From Escherichia coli (GTDB lineage: Bacteria; Pseudomonadota; Gammaproteobacteria; Enterobacterales; Enterobacteriaceae): 64,000 nt of DNA. The notes below the pieces were generated by a model. That model did not search any database, was not told the DNA's origin, and saw nothing but the letters and a program-made list of their open reading frames with translations. Position numbers and translations under genes: made by a program. This document shows, piece by piece, positions 8,867 to 52,353 of the stretch (positions are counted from its first letter, which is position 1; each line of letters starts with the position of its first letter). The DNA lies in assembly GCF_003334765.1 (NCBI RefSeq), contig NZ_QOWT01000007.1. One strand, written 5' to 3'.

Positions 8867-9502
8867 TCTTCTGAATCACCGGGCGAAAAAATATAACTGA
8901 GTTACAAATAAGTACCAGTCGAATGAGTATTGTATTAAGAATTTTTGAGTATCGCTGATACAACCAGAAAGCAATGCTAGCGCAATATTATAGGGCCAGC
9001 AATTGAGATTATTAGTAAAAGCATGTTAAGAATTAATTACCGAATTTATATATTAATTATAGTAAGGCAATGAGCTATTTTTGATAGTAAAAATAAAACA
9101 AGTTGATTTGATATATTAAATGAACAAATTAATCTTGATGGCAGTCTGATTATTGGTGAAGTTTATAGTCAGTTTTTTTCGCCAGCGGTTAAAGAAATAG
9201 AATAGTCGTATAAAAAAGGGTGTTCTGGGGCGAGTAAAACAACATCTTCACCTTAATGGCGATACAGTTGGCTGAGAGTCAGCAGGGGGGCAAATCACCT
9301 GCAAATAAACACGGCGCATACTGGCGTGAATATCGCGGATGCGTTCGAGGACAGAAGAACCGACAGGCGGATTCTTCAGCCGCTCATCGTCCATCACAAA
9401 ACCTTAGACCAGGTATTCCTGAAGCCGATTGAATATTGAGCAGTAGAAAATATCTGGATTGACAGTATTACAAGGGGTTGGAGAACGTCAGGAGAGGCAT
9501 TT

Positions 9503-9597
9503 TGGCGGAAGATCACAGGAGTCGAACCTGCCCGGGACCGCTGGCGGCCCCAACTGGATTTGAAGTCCAGCCGCCTCACCGGAGACGACGATCTTCC
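9503..9597 (-). tRNA. selC: tRNA-Sec (selenocysteine tRNA)
   Basis: Minus strand reads GGAAGATCGTCGTCTCCGGTGAGGCGGCTGGACTTCAAATCCAGTTGGGGCCGCCAGCGGTCCCGGGCAGGTTCGACTCCTGTGATCTTCCGCCA, the 95-nt selC sequence with long extra arm and UCA anticodon. Confidence 0.95.
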
Positions 9598-28103: not shown

Positions 28104-28119
28104 CTGTATTTATATACAG
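28104..28119. promoter_or_regulatory. LexA (SOS) operator upstream of dinD
   Basis: CTGT-atttatat-ACAG, the canonical CTGT-N8-ACAG box, about 45 bp upstream of the dinD start. Confidence 0.8.
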
Positions 28120-29143: not shown

Positions 29144-29269
29144 AGACGTTCCTGTTTATAAAAGGAGAGGTGGAAGGATTATAGCCATCGATGCCTTGTC
29201 AGGATAGGAATAACCGCCGGAAGTCCGTATAATGCGCAGCCACATTTGTTTCAAGCCGGAGATTTCAAT

Positions 29270-29986
29270 ATGCGTCCAGCAGGCCGTAGCAATAATCAGG
29301 TGCGTCCCGTTACCCTGACTCGTAACTATACAAAACATGCAGAAGGCTCGGTGCTGGTCGAATTTGGCGATACCAAAGTGTTGTGTACCGCCTCTATTGA
29401 AGAAGGCGTGCCGCGCTTCCTGAAAGGTCAGGGCCAGGGCTGGATCACCGCAGAGTACGGCATGCTGCCACGTTCTACCCACACCCGTAACGCTCGTGAA
29501 GCGGCGAAAGGTAAGCAGGGTGGACGCACAATGGAAATCCAGCGTCTGATCGCCCGTGCGCTTCGCGCGGCAGTAGATTTGAAAGCGCTGGGTGAGTTCA
29601 CCATTACGCTGGACTGCGACGTGCTTCAGGCTGATGGTGGCACGCGTACCGCTTCGATTACGGGTGCCTGTGTGGCGCTGGCAGATGCGCTACAGAAGCT
29701 GGTGGAAAACGGCAAGCTGAAAACCAACCCGATGAAAGGGATGGTAGCCGCGGTTTCTGTCGGGATTGTGAACGGCGAAGCGGTTTGCGATCTGGAATAC
29801 GTTGAAGACTCTGCCGCAGAGACCGACATGAACGTAGTGATGACCGAAGACGGGCGCATCATTGAAGTGCAGGGGACGGCAGAAGGCGAGCCGTTCACCC
29901 ATGAAGAGCTACTCACCTTGTTGGCGCTGGCCCGAGGGGGAATCGAATCCATTGTAGCGACGCAGAAGGCGGCGCTGGCAAACTGA
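29270..29986 (+). CDS. rph: ribonuclease PH, full-length wild-type allele
   Basis: ORF 29246..29986; start at [10 protein letters not shown] (238 aa); C-terminus ...[13 protein letters not shown] intact. Confidence 0.9.
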
Positions 29987-29994
29987 TTTTTAAG

Positions 29995-30018
29995 GCGACT
30001 GATGAGTCGCTTTTTTTT
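29995..30018 (+). promoter_or_regulatory. pyrE attenuator (intrinsic terminator in the rph-pyrE leader)
   Basis: GCGACT-gatg-AGTCGC hairpin plus T8 run, 9 nt after the rph stop and about 32 nt before the pyrE ATG. Confidence 0.8.
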
Positions 30019-30050
30019 GTCTGTAGAAAAGTAAGATGAGGAGCGAAGGC

Positions 30051-30692
30051 ATGAAACCATATCAGCGCCAGTTTATTGAATTTGCGCTTAGCAAGCAGGT
30101 GTTAAAGTTTGGCGAGTTTACGCTGAAATCCGGGCGTAAAAGCCCCTATTTCTTCAACGCCGGGCTGTTTAATACCGGGCGCGACCTGGCACTGTTAGGC
30201 CGTTTTTACGCTGAAGCATTGGTGGACTCCGGCATTGAGTTCGATCTGCTGTTTGGCCCTGCTTACAAAGGGATCCCGATTGCCACCACAACCGCCGTGG
30301 CGTTGGCGGAGCATCATGACCTGGACCTGCCGTACTGCTTTAACCGCAAAGAGGCAAAAGACCACGGTGAAGGCGGCAATCTGGTTGGTAGCGCGTTACA
30401 AGGACGCGTAATGCTGGTAGATGATGTGATCACCGCCGGAACGGCGATTCGTGAGTCGATGGAAATTATTCAGGCCAATGGCGCGACGCTTGCTGGCGTG
30501 TTGATTTCGCTCGATCGTCAGGAACGGGGGCGCGGCGAGATTTCGGCGATTCAGGAAGTTGAGCGTGATTACAACTGCAAAGTGATCTCTATCATCACCC
30601 TGAAAGATCTGATTGCTTACCTGGAAGAGAAGCCGGAAATGGCGGAACATCTGGCGGCGGTTAAGGCCTATCGCGAAGAGTTTGGCGTTTAA
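30051..30692 (+). CDS. pyrE: orotate phosphoribosyltransferase
   Basis: ORF 30036..30692; start at [13 protein letters not shown] (213 aa); PRPP-binding motif [13 protein letters not shown]. Confidence 0.95.
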
Positions 30693-30700
30693 AGAAACTC

Positions 30701-30722
30701 GCCGGATGAAAATTCATCCGGC
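30701..30722. terminator. bidirectional terminator hairpin between convergent pyrE and slmA
   Basis: GCCGGATGAA-aatt-TTCATCCGGC inverted repeat. Confidence 0.6.
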
Positions 30723-30728
30723 GTCATA

Positions 30729-37279: not shown

Positions 37280-37626
37280 AATAAATAGCTGACTTATGGA
37301 TGTGCTGGGGATTCTATGTATTTAGCACCGGGTTTGCCATTACTTTTCCTTTTTTTGACTTAATTAGCCTCTGTTTGAGCTGATCTGCCGCTAGATCTTC
37401 ATTTTTTTTGTATTTTTATGCGATTCATTGAATTTCAGCCAGGATTGCAGCTTTACATCGACAATATCTGGATTCTCGAGTATGCAAAATTTTATCTCTA
37501 TGATTTTTATAATTAAAACATATTTTGTGTATAAAAATCATTCGGGTCGGATTGCTGCGAAAGAAATGATACACTAGCGCGTCAAAGTAAGTGCGTTATC
37601 AGTATTCGGGTAGCTGTTGAGCCTGG

Positions 37627-37638
37627 GGCGGTAGCGTG
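37627..37638 (+). promoter_or_regulatory. ops element (RfaH recruitment site, JUMPStart region) in the waaQ leader
   Basis: Exact GGCGGTAGCGTG followed by a T run, about 50-85 nt upstream of the waaQ start. Confidence 0.8.
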
Positions 37639-39877: not shown

Positions 39878-40667
39878 ATTAGAAGAGCCACTTGCCACAC
39901 TCTGGCGTGGTAAAGATGCCTTTGCAGAAGTTAAAAAACTGAATGGCGAGGTCTTCCGTGAACTGGAGACGCGTCGCACATTACGCTTTGAACTGGCCGG
40001 CAAAAGTTATTTCCTCAAATGGCACAAAGGGACGACCCTAAAGGAGATTATAAAAAATCTGCTCTCATTGCGGATGCCCGTTTTAGGTGCAGACAGAGAG
40101 TGGCACGCTATTCATCGACTGCATGATGTCGGTGTTGATACGATGCACGGAATAGGATTTGGTGAAAAAGGGTTAAATCCATTAACTCGCACATCATTTA
40201 TTATTACCGAAGATCTCACTCCCACAATTAGCCTTGAAGATTATTGTGCAGATTGGGCGGTCAACCCGCCTGATGTACATATTAAGCGTATGCTGATCGC
40301 GCGTGTGGCAACCATGGTGCGCAAAATGCATGCAGCAGGGATTAATCACCGTGATTGTTATATCTGCCACTTTTTACTCCATTTGCCATTTACTGGCCGG
40401 GAAGATGAATTAAAAATTTCGGTTATCGATCTGCACCGGGCACAGATACGTGCAAAAGTACCACGTCGTTGGCGGGATAAAGATTTGATTGGTTTATATT
40501 TCTCATCAATGAATATTGGTCTGACGCAGAGAGATATCTGGCGATTTATGAAGGTTTATTTTGGGATGCCTTTACGCGATATTTATAGACTTGAGATTGA
40601 TTTACTTAAAAAGGCAAGGATTAAAGCAGGAAAAATAGAAGCAAGAACAATAAGAAAAAACTTGTAA
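39870..40667 (+). CDS. waaP: LPS core heptose(I) kinase
   Basis: 265 aa; kinase-like HRDCYICHF motif; 8-nt overlap with waaG. Confidence 0.9.
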
Positions 40668-40699
40668 ATAGTATTTTATTACAAAAAGGGATTCTAAAA

Positions 40700-41680
40700 T
40701 TGTTGAAATATAGAAACTTCGTTGCTAAGAAGAAAAATTTATACCAAAACGAAGTGTCGTATGTTAAAAATTTACATATTGCACTATGCTTTGACCGTGA
40801 ATTCATAATGCCAGCGGGTGTTGCATTATATTCAATTATATCCAACAATAGACATATTAACCTTCATTTTCACCTTCTTATATCAGGCATAGAAGAAAAG
40901 GAGTGTTCAGCTTTTTACGAACTAGAAGGTCCTAATACATCAATATCTGTATATTATATAACTGATAAATTTGACATTAATCCGGATACATTAGTTCTTG
41001 GTATTCCTTTATCAACATGTTTACGTTTTTTAATCCCAGAAGTTATTGATGATAAAATAAATAAGATACTTTATCTTGACTGTGATGTCATATGTAATGG
41101 TCCTTTAGATGAACTGGTTGATTATAATTTAAATGCTGATATTGCATGTGTAATTCCAGATTCGCCAGAAATGCAAGAACGTGTAAAAAAATTAGACTAT
41201 GGCATTGAGTTTATTAATTATTTTAATGCCGGGGTTATGTTTATTAATACCAGCGAATGGAAAAAAAATAATATAACACAAAAAGCGTTAGAAATGATCA
41301 ACAGTGGAAAAGTATATAGGTATGCAGATCAGGATGTGCTCAATATTTTACTTAATGGACGAGTGCATTACCTTGATAAGAAGTACAATAATAAGACAAC
41401 ATTGTCAGTACGATGTGATGAAGAACAAAAAAACTTGCCCAACACAATTATAATGCATTATGTTACCCAGAATAAACCATGGTACAAAATATTTAGAGCA
41501 CAAAATTTTGATCATTATTTTTCAAATTCTCCTTGGAAGAACCATAAAAGAAATCTAGCTCCATCATCAAGTGAGATTAGGTTAAAGTCTAAAGTTTTTT
41601 GGCTAGAAGGAAAATATTGTAAAGCCATTTCTTATTATTATAAGTATTTACTTGTTAAATTATTTGGCTTAAAGATTTAG
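40700..41680 (+). CDS. GT8-family LPS core glycosyltransferase at the position K-12 gives to waaS
   Basis: 326 aa; GT8 motifs shared with the two downstream paralogs (LYLDCDVICNG, YFNAGVMFIN, DQDVLN, KPW); low GC. Confidence 0.6.
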   Translation: MLKYRNFVAKKKNLYQNEVSYVKNLHIALCFDREFIMPAGVALYSIISNNRHINLHFHLLISGIEEKECSAFYELEGPNTSISVYYITDKFDINPDTLVLGIPLSTCLRFLIPEVIDDKINKILYLDCDVICNGPLDELVDYNLNADIACVIPDSPEMQERVKKLDYGIEFINYFNAGVMFINTSEWKKNNITQKALEMINSGKVYRYADQDVLNILLNGRVHYLDKKYNNKTTLSVRCDEEQKNLPNTIIMHYVTQNKPWYKIFRAQNFDHYFSNSPWKNHKRNLAPSSSEIRLKSKVFWLEGKYCKAISYYYKYLLVKLFGLKI

Positions 41681-41693
41681 CTGGAATGAAATT

Positions 41694-45759: not shown

Positions 45760-46569
45760 ATGAAGAATATTAGATACATTGACAAAAAAGATGTTGAAAA
45801 CCTGATAGAAAGTAAAACGTCTGATGATGTTATTATTTTTCTTTCCGGCCCCACATCGCAAAAAACACCATTGTCAGTGCTGCAGACAAGGGATGTTATT
45901 GCTGTCAATGGTTCTGCACAATATCTATTAAGTCATAATATTATTCCCTATATTTATGTACTTACCGATGTTCGCTTTTTACATCAACGGCGTGATGATT
46001 TTTATAAATTTAGCCAGAGAAGTCGTTATACCATCGTAAATGTTGACGTTTATGAACATGCTTCTGAAGAAGATAAGCGGTACATCCTTCAAAACTGCCT
46101 GGTACTACGTTCATTTTACCGCAGAGAAAAAGGTGGATTGATCAAGAAGATCAAGTTTAATATTTTGAGCCGAATTCATAAAGAGCTCCTGATCTCTGTA
46201 CCTTTTTCTAAAAAAGGTCGTCTGGTTGGCTTTTGCAAGGATATTAACCTCGGTTATTGTTCATGCCATACCGTTGCTTTTGCTGCAATCCAAATAGCCT
46301 ATTCGCTGAAGTATGCTCGTATTATCTGTTCAGGCCTTGATTTAACGGGTAGCTGTTCGCGTTTCTATGATGAAGATAAGAATCCTATGCCCTCAGAGTT
46401 GATTCGGGATTTATTCAAAATTTTACCATTTTTCCGTTTTATGCGTGAAAATATAGAAGATATCAATATTTATAATTTATCCGACGATACTGCAATTCAA
46501 TATGATATTATTCCCTATATGAAAATATCCGAAATTGAAGAGCCGTGTGTTTATGAAAAAATAAGCTAA
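45760..46569 (+). CDS. waaZ: LPS core biosynthesis protein WaaZ (KdoIII-associated)
   Basis: 269 aa; position and similarity to recalled WaaZ; low GC. Confidence 0.7.
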   Translation: MKNIRYIDKKDVENLIESKTSDDVIIFLSGPTSQKTPLSVLQTRDVIAVNGSAQYLLSHNIIPYIYVLTDVRFLHQRRDDFYKFSQRSRYTIVNVDVYEHASEEDKRYILQNCLVLRSFYRREKGGLIKKIKFNILSRIHKELLISVPFSKKGRLVGFCKDINLGYCSCHTVAFAAIQIAYSLKYARIICSGLDLTGSCSRFYDEDKNPMPSELIRDLFKILPFFRFMRENIEDINIYNLSDDTAIQYDIIPYMKISEIEEPCVYEKIS

Positions 46570-46621
46570 TATTTTATATGTGTTTATTACGTGTTATAAA
46601 TTATATTGGAGTTGGCTAATA

Positions 46622-47764
46622 ATGATTAAAAAAATAATATTTACCGTCACACCAATATTTTCTATACCGCCAAAAGGAGCTGCAGCGGTTGAAACATGGA
46701 TTTATCAGGTCGCAAAAAGACTTTCGATTCCAGTAACTATCGCCTGTATTCGAAACGAAGGTTACCCAACCTACACAAAAGTAAATGATCACTGTGATAT
46801 TCACTACATTGGTTTTAGTCGAGTCTATAAACGACTTTTCCAAAAGTGGACTCGACTTGATCCTGTGCCATATTCTCAGCGTATTTTAAATACCCAACCT
46901 AAAAACACTGATCCGAAAGACTCTGTTATTGTTATCCACAATAGCATGAAGCTGTATAAACAGATTCGTAGCAGAAGCCCTCACGCGCAGCTAGTTATGC
47001 ATCTTCATAATGCTTTCGAGCCAGGTGAGTTAGACAAAAATGCAAAGATAATTGTTCCTAGCCAGTTTCTTTTCGATTTCTATTCGGAAAAAATGCCTGA
47101 TGCAAATATTGCTATTGTGCCTAATGGTTTTTGTTCTGAATCGTATGAACAAAATAATACTGAAGATTTGAGGCAGAAACTGAACATTGATGCAAATGAT
47201 ACCGTGTTATTATTTGCAGGAAGGATATCACCAGATAAAGGTTGCCTGATGCTTATGGAGGCTTTTAATCAGCTGAATAAGATACAAGATAACCTCAAAC
47301 TGGTGATTGTCGGAGATCCTTTTGCCAGTAAAAAAGGCGAAAAAGCTGAATATCAGAAAAAAGTTCTGGATGCAGCGAAAGCTATTGGAGCGCAATGCAT
47401 TATGGCGGGTGGACAGCCTCCAGAGCAGATGCATAACTATTACCGTTTAGCAGATTTAGTTGTTGTTCCTTCTCAGGTAGAAGAAGCTTTTTGTATGGTA
47501 GCTGTTGAAGCGATGGCGGCAGGTAAACCAGTGCTTGCCAGTCAAAAAGGTGGAATTAGTGAGTTTGTTCTGGAAGGAATTACAGGCTATCACCTTGCAG
47601 AGCCTATGACATCTGAAAGTATTCTCGCGGATATTAAGCGCGTTTTGGCGGATGCTGACAGAGCTCAAATTGCTAAAAATGCCCGAAATTTTGTTTTCTC
47701 AAAATATAGCTGGGAACATGTTACTCAGCGTTTTGAAGCACAAATACAAGACTGGTTTGGTTAA
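46622..47764 (+). CDS. waaK: GT4 glycosyltransferase, WaaK-like (GlcNAc transferase in Salmonella and R2 cores)
   Basis: ORF 46580..47764; start at MIKKIIFTV with GGAG Shine-Dalgarno (381 aa); GT4 EX7E-type C-terminal domain; not a GT9 heptosyltransferase like K-12 WaaU. Confidence 0.65.
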   Translation: MIKKIIFTVTPIFSIPPKGAAAVETWIYQVAKRLSIPVTIACIRNEGYPTYTKVNDHCDIHYIGFSRVYKRLFQKWTRLDPVPYSQRILNTQPKNTDPKDSVIVIHNSMKLYKQIRSRSPHAQLVMHLHNAFEPGELDKNAKIIVPSQFLFDFYSEKMPDANIAIVPNGFCSESYEQNNTEDLRQKLNIDANDTVLLFAGRISPDKGCLMLMEAFNQLNKIQDNLKLVIVGDPFASKKGEKAEYQKKVLDAAKAIGAQCIMAGGQPPEQMHNYYRLADLVVVPSQVEEAFCMVAVEAMAAGKPVLASQKGGISEFVLEGITGYHLAEPMTSESILADIKRVLADADRAQIAKNARNFVFSKYSWEHVTQRFEAQIQDWFG

Positions 47765-47782
47765 AAATTATTGGATTTGAAG

Positions 47783-47819
47783 AGCCTGCCTGAACTTAAT
47801 GTCAGGCAGGCTTTTTTTT
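47783..47819 (+). terminator. intrinsic terminator at the end of the waaQ operon, overlapping the waaL stop
   Basis: AGCCTGCCTGA-acttaatg-TCAGGCAGGCT 11-bp stem followed by T8. Confidence 0.75.
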
Positions 47820-49035
47820 ATTTATTCCGCATTGCTAACAGTAAACCAACAATCAAGCCAATTGGTTTGAGATCAACTTCCTCGAAGTTACCTCGAATAA
47901 TATAAAAGCTTACAAGCGTTAAAAATAGTAGTAATTGACCATTATAAGGAGTGACGACAACTGTTTTAAACGTTGCATTAGCTGTCTCTTTGATAATAGA
48001 GCCATACAGATAAAGTAAAGCGAGTAGTCCAGCCAAACCCGCTGCAAACCAAATTGACAAAACAACGTTGTGTGGCCCAATGGATTGCCTGAACTTCCAT
48101 GACGGAAAATCTACAACACGCTTATTATATATTGCATGGTAAATATCATCGCCGTAGCCATATCCCTTAAGAGGATTTTCCATAATTAATGTCCACGCCG
48201 TACCTTGAGTACCATTGGTATAGCGATAAGAACTGTCGGTCTGTTGAAGTTTATAAATAAGCCTGTCTTTACCAGCATGATCACCTTTATAGGTAAATAC
48301 ACCCACTGCGGCAACAGAAATAACGATGGAAGTCAGCATCAATAATTTCCACTGACGATTTAAGATTAACCATAGCAGAGTCACTATGAATACTGCCAGC
48401 CATGCACCACGAGACAGCGTTCCTAATAGCAGAAATAAGAAAACTGCACTAAAAATTACGAATGCTATTTTATAAGAGGTTTTCTTGATAAGCCAAAGGT
48501 TTAATAATGCTGGAAACAGAAACACCATTGAATCGGAAATACTACGGTGTTCATAGGTGGAAAATGGCATTATTCCTTTATTATAATCCTGAATATAAAG
48601 AATAAGTTCAACAAGACAACGTAAGCCAAGTCCGGTAACTAATGAGTATAGTACAATTTTACCAATGCTTTCATTATCTTCATCTTTTAATAATGCAGGT
48701 ATAAGTAAACTATAGGCCAAAAATCCTTTAAGTACCGTATTACTGAATTCTTTAAAACTGATTTTCAGATCAGGTGATATAAAAGTAGCATATAAAAGAA
48801 TGAGTGATAGTGCCAGGACACTATAAAAAAGATTATTTTTATAGAGTACTTTAAATGTTCCCGGAGCACGAGAAACTTGATAGATTACCGTAATAATCAT
48901 TAGTATAGATATGATGTGTTTATAACGGGTTATACCATCAAGGAAAAAGGTTGCAATAAAGAGGAATACCAACGCTTTATTCCAGTACGGTTTCCACTTT
49001 TCTTTATTACGTAGCGCCAGCGAGGCTGTTAACAT
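47818..49035 (-). CDS. waaL: O-antigen ligase
   Basis: 405 aa polytopic protein, N-terminus MLTASLALRNKEKWKPYWNKALVFLF; resembles the Salmonella-type WaaL I recall, not K-12 WaaL. Confidence 0.8.
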   Translation of the reverse strand: MLTASLALRNKEKWKPYWNKALVFLFIATFFLDGITRYKHIISILMIITVIYQVSRAPGTFKVLYKNNLFYSVLALSLILLYATFISPDLKISFKEFSNTVLKGFLAYSLLIPALLKDEDNESIGKIVLYSLVTGLGLRCLVELILYIQDYNKGIMPFSTYEHRSISDSMVFLFPALLNLWLIKKTSYKIAFVIFSAVFLFLLLGTLSRGAWLAVFIVTLLWLILNRQWKLLMLTSIVISVAAVGVFTYKGDHAGKDRLIYKLQQTDSSYRYTNGTQGTAWTLIMENPLKGYGYGDDIYHAIYNKRVVDFPSWKFRQSIGPHNVVLSIWFAAGLAGLLALLYLYGSIIKETANATFKTVVVTPYNGQLLLFLTLVSFYIIRGNFEEVDLKPIGLIVGLLLAMRNK

Positions 49036-49073
49036 TGCTTCTCCACCATCTTAAATAATATATAACGTATTAA

Positions 49074-50030
49074 TCAGGAATTGATTTTATTAAATACCGT
49101 TTCTGCAGTCAGATGAGCAAGATCTTTATCTGGTGCCCTACAAACCACCTGATTCTTCCCATATCCGCCAATTAATCCCGGATCGGTTGGTCCATAAACC
49201 GTGATATTCGGTCGATCCAGTGCTGCAGTTAAATGACTTAACCCAGTGTCTACCGATACCACGAATTTCGCTCCGGCCAGCACACGGGCAACACCTTCCA
49301 GACTCATCTTCGGCAATACTTCAACATAAGCAAATCCTTCCGCCAGTCGTTTCGCCCGTTTTTCCTCATGCGGCGCACCCCACGGAAGTTTAATGCGAAT
49401 CCCTGAATCTGCCAGTAAACCAATCAATTCTCGCCAGTGTTCTTCCGGCCAGTGTTTATCATCACGGGTCGTCGCATGAAGAAATACGGCATATTCGCCA
49501 GCATCTGTAGGCAGGTTCGTCAGAAAATGCTGTGCGATAGCATAATCGCCCTGGGTTTGCGGTTTGCTATAGCCCAGACTTTTGGCAAAAAGTTCGCGGA
49601 TGCGTTCTACGGCGTGCTGCTGTTTTGCAATATGATGTTTACGATTGTAAAACAGGCTGGCTAAAGGTTCGCGAGCGGTTTGCCAGTCCATTCCATGCTT
49701 TACGCCATGCGCCAGACGCGTCACCAGCGCCGCGCTTTTTACCAGCCCCTGAGCATCGATAACTGCGTCATAGTTCTCTGCTTGTAGCGCTTCACGAAAC
49801 GCTTTGCGTTCAGCTTTTATGGGGGCCGAGAACCAGGCTTTACGCCAGCGACGTATTGCCACAGGAATAACTCGCTCAACGGCGGCGTGCCAGGAAGGAA
49901 TCTGTGCGAACCCTTCTTCCACCACCCAGTCAAACTTAATCCCTGGGATTGCCTGCTGGGCATCAGTGAGTGCGGGCAACGTATGGAGAACATCGCCCAT
50001 CGACGATGTTTTAACGATCAAAACCCGCAT
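49074..50030 (-). CDS. waaC: LPS heptosyltransferase I
   Basis: 318 aa MRVLIVKTSSMGDVLHTLPALTDA, GT9. Confidence 0.9.
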   Translation of the reverse strand: MRVLIVKTSSMGDVLHTLPALTDAQQAIPGIKFDWVVEEGFAQIPSWHAAVERVIPVAIRRWRKAWFSAPIKAERKAFREALQAENYDAVIDAQGLVKSAALVTRLAHGVKHGMDWQTAREPLASLFYNRKHHIAKQQHAVERIRELFAKSLGYSKPQTQGDYAIAQHFLTNLPTDAGEYAVFLHATTRDDKHWPEEHWRELIGLLADSGIRIKLPWGAPHEEKRAKRLAEGFAYVEVLPKMSLEGVARVLAGAKFVVSVDTGLSHLTAALDRPNITVYGPTDPGLIGGYGKNQVVCRAPDKDLAHLTAETVFNKINS

Positions 50031-52140: not shown

Positions 52141-52353
52141 AACTGTAACCTTCGAATTGTGGAGTCAGAGACAATCTCAGACACGAATACTTCTATCATA
52201 TCACTACACGGCGCTGGCTACAGCCATTCACCGAAAGTGGTATGCCTGAGCGTGATTTATGCTTATTTTTTGACAAGTACAAATGCTTCATCTCGTATCA
52301 ACCTATGGCTTTCGGTAATATGTGCTGAAATTTGCCCAGTCTGGAGAATCGCG

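Follow-up and report, generated by a model that had tools for sequence, protein, structure and literature searches.

We describe the rph-pyrE region of a 64,000-nt stretch of Escherichia coli DNA, hereafter the window, which very probably carries the wild-type bicistronic operon of a non-K-12 strain, with pyrE expressed by read-through of an attenuator and with the coupling geometry between the end of rph and that attenuator intact. The attenuator hairpin shares its 5' arm and loop with that of the K-12 rph-pyrE operon, and neither the T8 tract nor the ribosome-binding site of pyrE differs, whereas the 3' arm is one C shorter and the bottom pair is G.U instead of G-C. An earlier note on this DNA had read the attenuator coupling as intact. 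That reading stands for the distance between stop codon and hairpin but needs qualification for the hairpin itself, which has a 1-nt deletion relative to the majority allele of E. coli. In all other respects this is an intact E. coli rph-pyrE operon in its normal state, a textbook system that is already known.

Background

In the pyrBI leader attenuator of E. coli, a ribosome following close behind a UTP-starved polymerase blocks the terminator hairpin. The logic of the pyrE attenuator is the same, except that pyrBI uses a dedicated short leader peptide and here the ribosome is the one finishing full-length rph. According to PMC2784333 and PMC11148124 (citing Bonekamp et al. 1984 and Jensen 1993), termination at the pyrE attenuator is modulated by UTP, because transcription there is coupled to the ribosome that completes rph. 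The same papers state that the rph-1 frameshift uncouples transcription from translation and lowers PyrE.

On this model, pyrE in the window would be expressed by read-through of an intrinsic terminator starting 5-8 nt after the rph stop. With UTP plentiful, RNA polymerase would outrun the ribosome on the end of rph, the hairpin would form, and transcription would stop at the U tract. With UTP scarce, the polymerase would lag, the leading ribosome would stand at the TGA with its footprint over the 5' arm of the hairpin, and read-through into pyrE would follow. In rph-1, the ribosome would stop 29 nt earlier, leaving the hairpin unmasked and pyrE starved. UTP dependence, ribosome masking and the effect of the missing C are drawn from the literature or from inference, whereas the identity of the genes, the lack of the rph-1 deletion, the spacing, the hairpin with its conservation and the frequency of its allele come from the sequence analysis.

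Results

A complete rph gene followed by pyrE

The features of the operon and of its surroundings are collected in Table 1. Both direct reading and the list of open reading frames start rph with the ATG at 29270 and give it a length of 717 nt, made up of 238 codons and the stop; its translation ends in ...ATQKAALAN. The earlier note had described a full 238-aa RNase PH, with which reading frame, translation and C-terminal sequence all agree, and its placement of the stop codon matches both the direct reading and the list. In a profile search, the rph product scored 380.8 bits with the NCBIfam model TIGR01966 (RNasePH; cut-off 141.5), and residues 2-236 covered profile positions 1-235 of 236, which is a full-length match. 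The protein is identical to WP_001247093.1, a common E. coli RNase PH allele that is annotated as the rph product in each of three E. coli strains examined, 28RC1, C 691-04A and M217. From this identity, the window RNase PH would be expected to have phosphorolytic 3'-5' exoribonuclease activity.

The pyrE product matched TIGR00336 with 240.6 bits (cut-off 106.8), and a spacer of 64 nt (29987..30050) separates the two genes. The rph-pyrE locus was found in 5425 of 5426 complete E. coli genomes; all 30 of the 30 RefSeq matches sampled are annotated as rph or as rph plus pyrE. Downstream, the G/C-rich hairpin between the convergent pyrE and slmA genes is likely the terminator that ends the rph-pyrE operon.

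Table 1. Features of the rph-pyrE operon and its genomic surroundings in the window
Feature	Position	Strand	Basis
tRNA-Sec (selC)	9507..9597	-	Rfam, 83.8 bits
TATAAT, candidate -10 of the rph-pyrE promoter, 37 nt upstream of the rph ATG	29228..29233	+	direct reading; promoter role putative
rph, full-length RNase PH (238 aa + TGA)	29270..29986	+	ORF, translation, TIGR01966
G5 run, site of the rph-1 one-base deletion, intact in the window	29936..29940	+	alignment with MG1655
rph stop codon TGA	29984..29986	+	direct reading, ORF list, translation
T5 run between rph stop and hairpin	29987..29991	+	direct reading
pyrE attenuator hairpin, 9 bp (AAGGCGACT / AGTCGCTTT), loop GATG	29992..30013	+	RNAfold, terminator scan
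Junction with one C missing relative to MG1655 (GTCGC/TTTTTTTT against GTCGCC/TTTTTTTT)	30010..30011	+	alignment with MG1655
T8 tract of the attenuator, its first three T able to pair with AAG in the 5' arm	30011..30018	+	direct reading, terminator scan
pyrE Shine-Dalgarno GAGGAG, 7 nt before the ATG	30038..30043	+	direct reading
pyrE, orotate phosphoribosyltransferase (213 aa)	30051..30692	+	TIGR00336, ORF
10-bp G/C-rich hairpin between convergent pyrE and slmA	30700..30723	.	terminator-like site in scan
JUMPstart element upstream of waaQ, in keeping with a waaQ operon leader	37600..37638	+	RF01707, 53.1 bits
GT8-type glycosyltransferase	40700..41680		weak match to waaO-type galactosyltransferases
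WaaK-type LPS N-acetylglucosaminyltransferase at the waaU position	46622..47764		NF012028, 724 bits, cut-off 618
waaL, different from K-12	47818..49035	-	waa locus comparison
htrL-less interval between rfaD (hldD) and kbl, about 100 bp	52188..52290		comparison with MG1655 (1.3 kb with htrL there)

The window is rph+

The rph-1 allele has lost one G from a run of five and encodes a 228-aa product ending in ...ARGESNPL. The earlier note had called for an alignment with MG1655 in which to look for this deletion. In that alignment, the window reads GAGGGGGAATC and MG1655 reads GAGGGGAATC, five G against four at the rph-1 site, so that the 1-bp deletion is absent from the window, and there is no frameshift. 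Because the G5 run is retained where rph-1 has G4, the window is rph+, with a product of 238 aa. The rph gene of MG1655 is annotated as 'truncated RNase PH' and translates to 228 aa ending in ...LALARGESNPL; its stop codon (TAG) ends 36 nt before the GGCGAC stem, compared with 7 nt for the TGA of the window. The locus is otherwise the same as that carrying the rph-1 allele of MG1655 and W3110 (Jensen 1993), at 98.8-98.9% identity.

A 75-nt query for the exact rph-1 allele matched 167 of 5426 complete E. coli genomes. Among the matches listed, 60 of 60 were K-12 derivatives (MG1655, W3110, BW25113, J53, HMS174, MFDpir and lines evolved from them) or laboratory lines. The retained G5 run, the 238-aa product and the scarcity of the rph-1 allele support the claim, made in the earlier note, that the window comes from a non-rph-1 background. 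The note was also right that MG1655 carries the truncating frameshift, and W3110, which it had named as well, is among the rph-1 matches listed. The rph+ state of the window is unsurprising, being typical of ~97% of complete E. coli genomes. Taken alone, it does not exclude a K-12 origin, because the K-12 derivatives DH1 and JM83 (the latter in PMC11148124) are rph+. Compared with DH1, the RNase PH of the window differs at A138V and T216I.

Across other species, a G run of at least five is kept at the rph-1 site in 96 of 115 loci. Kluyvera genomosp. 3 YDC799 (CP022114.1) reads GCCCGAGGGGAATC (G4), its rph G run being short of one base exactly as in E. coli rph-1. The G4 region lies ~90-130 nt upstream of pyrE, the product ends in ...ARGESNPL, and its TAG stop is found 93 nt before pyrE. 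Either the frameshift arose again, independently, in a homopolymer prone to slippage, or it reflects a sequencing error in the G run.

The rph stop codon lies directly before the attenuator hairpin

By direct reading, the hairpin has a 6-bp stem, GCGACT/AGTCGC, with arms at 29995..30000 and 30005..30010 and the loop GATG between them. One G.U and two A-U pairs lengthen this G/C-rich core (29995..30010) to 9 bp, and the longer form was given both by the terminator scan and by RNAfold as the minimum-energy structure. From the rph stop onwards, the spacer reads TTTTT AAGGCGACT GATG AGTCGCTTT TTTTTG. A G/C-rich hairpin with a U tract is therefore present between rph and pyrE. The rph stop is no further from the 5' arm than a ribosome footprint reaches: 5 nt separate it from the first paired base, 7 from the first G of GGCGAC and 8 from the 6-bp core. 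The earlier note had put the stop 9 nt before the hairpin, which holds when the coordinates are subtracted (29986 from 29995), and direct reading bears out the hairpin that it had placed at 29995..30010 with T8 following. A ribosome whose A site holds a stop codon covers roughly 12-15 nt downstream; one that has reached the TGA at 29984..29986 would accordingly cover the 5' arm at 29992..30000.

An Rfam scan of the whole window at gathering threshold gave no family over the attenuator, its sole matches being tRNA-Sec and JUMPstart. The T5 run between stop and hairpin has a counterpart, of at least four T, in the spacer of 63 of 95 distinct sequences from other species. It might be a candidate UTP-sensitive pause site, or it might have no role.

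Conservation of the hairpin in the Enterobacterales

A collection of species-representative genomes was scanned with a degenerate pattern for the pyrE N-terminus, which yielded 120 loci; in 112 of these rph ends just upstream. A hairpin follows directly after the rph stop in 112 loci of other Enterobacterales species, far beyond chance. The GCGAC core starts 6-8 nt after the stop in 85 of 95 distinct sequences of other species (8 nt in the window), and this offset is held even where the spacer downstream of the hairpin measures 100-200 nt. At each of the five pairs of the core, 99-100% of sequences have a canonical combination. The pair equivalent to the G.U of the window is G-C in 83 of the 95 distinct sequences, A-T in 7, with both sides changed, and G.T in 5. 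Furthermore, the pyrE Shine-Dalgarno sequence is kept as (G)AGGAG in nearly all species loci. Predicted hairpin stability across the 112 loci was -14.1 ± 1.6 kcal/mol, the strongest hairpin reaching -19.6 and the weakest -10.3.

When 54 species sequences were aligned with plain MAFFT and analysed with RNAalifold, the consensus was a poor one of 6 pairs, in which loop-length differences had misaligned the 3' arms. This result was replaced by a tabulation anchored on the GCGAC/GTCGC core and, for the pair counts, by an arm-only alignment. In the latter, which is anchored on the stem core and hence fitted to the structure, a caveat on all of its covariation figures, 93% of cells were paired and both-side changes occurred at 4 of the 9 pairs. 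Cells with both sides changed numbered 23, against 9.2 ± 2.4 after shuffling; none of 500 shuffles reached 23, and the slid controls all fell far below the observed covariation. In this stem-anchored alignment, then, the structure is conserved in relatives with compensatory changes.

Some species depart from the common arrangement. In Budvicia diplopodorum and several others, the spacer between attenuator and pyrE is longer, at 100-200 nt, and contains additional hairpin-like sequence. The post-stop hairpin region of B. diplopodorum has no obvious U tract, and the attenuator of this species may be altered.

A minority hairpin allele with one C missing

The 3' arm reads GAGTCGC-T8 in the window. 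In MG1655 it is GAGTCGCC-T8, as in 84% of complete E. coli genomes, and O157-related, DH1, B and O6 strains have this longer arm too. As a 78-nt sequence, the canonical allele (GTCGCC then T8), which is not that of the window, had an exact match in 4580 of 5416 genomes. The bottom pair, G29994 with T30011, is a G.U wobble in the window and G-C in most E. coli. The predicted free energy of the window hairpin is about -11.6 kcal/mol (-11.5 to -11.6) compared with -14.3 for the majority allele, a drop of 2.7 kcal/mol. At -11.5 kcal/mol, it is weaker than the hairpins of 109 of the 112 species loci, yet within their range.

For the 77-nt allele of the window, the class of at least 99% identity comprises 486 of 5425 genomes, and full-length exact matches are estimated at ~409-486 (~8-9%) from rows sampled at even steps down the ranking. 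Over 921 nt, 363-543 genomes match the window at 100% identity, with the next-best class at 99.1%; the C-less allele therefore marks a single haplotype. Over 977 nt, two more carriers, SC516 (chicken, China) and L16-131 (lake, Philippines), have exactly the sequence of the window. The haplotype is also common to the window and strain M217, a member of the ST167 clone (PMC7193042), whose assembly was made from PacBio reads, with MiSeq reads mapped onto it (PMC5598989). Length variants of the T tract after GTCGCC exist in other complete E. coli genomes, T9 in EC19 and T7 in O157:H7 Z1835 and 2017.15.01CC; these may be real alleles or homopolymer errors.

Judged from its sequence, the attenuator with the missing C is probably still functional, and the modelled energies suggest that termination would most likely be somewhat leakier than at the majority allele. 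A stronger effect, in which the missing C largely disables the attenuator, so that pyrE is near-constitutive in this lineage and the coupling is intact in appearance only, appears unlikely to us. It would fit the loss of 2.7 kcal/mol, the fact that only 3 of the 112 species loci have a weaker hairpin, and the position of the lost G-C pair, which adjoins the U tract; in intrinsic terminators, the pair beside the U tract matters for transcript release. Against it, folding still predicts the 9-bp hairpin as the minimum-energy structure, this hairpin passes the terminator scan, and other species have the same G.U pair (5 of 95 distinct sequences) or A-T in place of G-C (7 of 95). The species range also extends to -10.3 kcal/mol, and the allele persists on a haplotype of several hundred genomes. 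GTCGC-T8 could, tentatively, be a natural regulatory allele, present on one haplotype in ~8-9% of complete E. coli genomes, M217 among them, that may measurably weaken termination and thereby raise basal pyrE expression or shift the UTP set-point of pyrimidine synthesis in the lineage.

Probable expression of pyrE from the rph transcript

Any gene end may carry an intrinsic terminator, and the hairpin with T8 could in principle be the plain terminator of a monocistronic rph, with pyrE uncoupled and expressed from a promoter of its own. We regard this as very improbable. A promoter scan of the spacer (29987..30050) gave no promoter-like site. The scan is insensitive, and its negative outcome is weak evidence, since it missed the rph promoter as well; there, the consensus scan made no call, with no adequate -35 at 16-18 nt. 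The reading is also opposed by the distance of 6-8 nt from stop to hairpin core in 85 of 95 distinct sequences, held even where the downstream spacer is long, and by the genetics of rph-1, which lowers pyrE expression and whose suppressors restore the proximity of the stop (PMC2784333, PMC4166923). Laboratory evolution recurrently selects an 82-bp rph-pyrE deletion that returns the stop to a place next to the hairpin (PMC2784333). Similarly, in engineered rph-1 mutants selected for growth, the rph stop codon was shifted in all, which the authors read as bringing the stop nearer to the attenuator (PMC4166923).

An error of sequencing or assembly as the source of the one-base difference, which a short C run beside the T8 homopolymer and the T7 and T9 tracts of other complete genomes, some possibly homopolymer errors, might suggest, has a negligible probability and was rejected in view of the ~409-486 independent complete genomes with the exact 77-nt allele, the distinct haplotype over 921 nt, the 977-nt identity of the chicken and lake isolates and the PacBio and MiSeq reads behind the M217 assembly.

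Genomic context and strain background

The closest genome found for the window is that of the ST167 strain M217, with which it is collinear from adeD to lldD at 99.6-99.96% identity, except for one copy of ISKox3. This 1.3-kb element of the ISL3 family lies between dinD and yicC in M217; the window has the empty site at 28108..28115, and in M217 those 8 bp are duplicated on either side of the element. Beside selC, a short rhuM pseudogene fragment is annotated in M217 and equals 9263..9424 of the window; it could be the remnant of an element once integrated at selC.

A K-12 origin of the window was rejected on the 98.8-98.9% identity of rph-pyrE, the diverged waa locus and the absence of htrL. 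The earlier note had called the waa locus non-K-12, and the comparison with MG1655 agrees: sequence identity in the waaB-waaZ segments is 87-88%, and no match was found in the window (40577..41693 and 46524..49125) for waaS and waaU/waaL of K-12. The waa gene set of the window presumably fits an R2-type core. The absence of htrL, likewise noted earlier, is borne out by an interval of about 100 bp where MG1655 has ~1.3 kb. On these sequence comparisons, it is the divergence of the flanking sequence, and not the rph state, that excludes a K-12 origin.

Discussion

The window has the genes, gene order and spacing from stop to hairpin of the E. coli rph(orfE)-pyrE operon with its UTP-modulated attenuator (Poulsen, Bonekamp and Jensen 1984, as cited in PMC2784333). 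The difference from rph-1 of MG1655 can be put in three figures: G5, 238 aa and 7 nt from stop to stem in the window, against G4, 228 aa and 36 nt. The 82-bp deletion of evolved MG1655 (PMC2784333, PMC3203608, PMC4166923) and the window have in common that the end of rph translation is placed beside the attenuator, the condition for normal pyrE expression. The deletion, however, is a suppressor in an rph-1 background in which RNase PH is still inactive, whereas rph is complete in the window and its arrangement with pyrE is the native one.

As a strain marker, the locus identifies the window as rph+, non-K-12 E. coli. Judging by the locus, its strain, unlike MG1655, W3110 and their derivatives, should have active RNase PH and normal regulation of pyrE. 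Additionally, the minority hairpin allele would provide a natural test of the stem stability that the pyrE attenuator needs.
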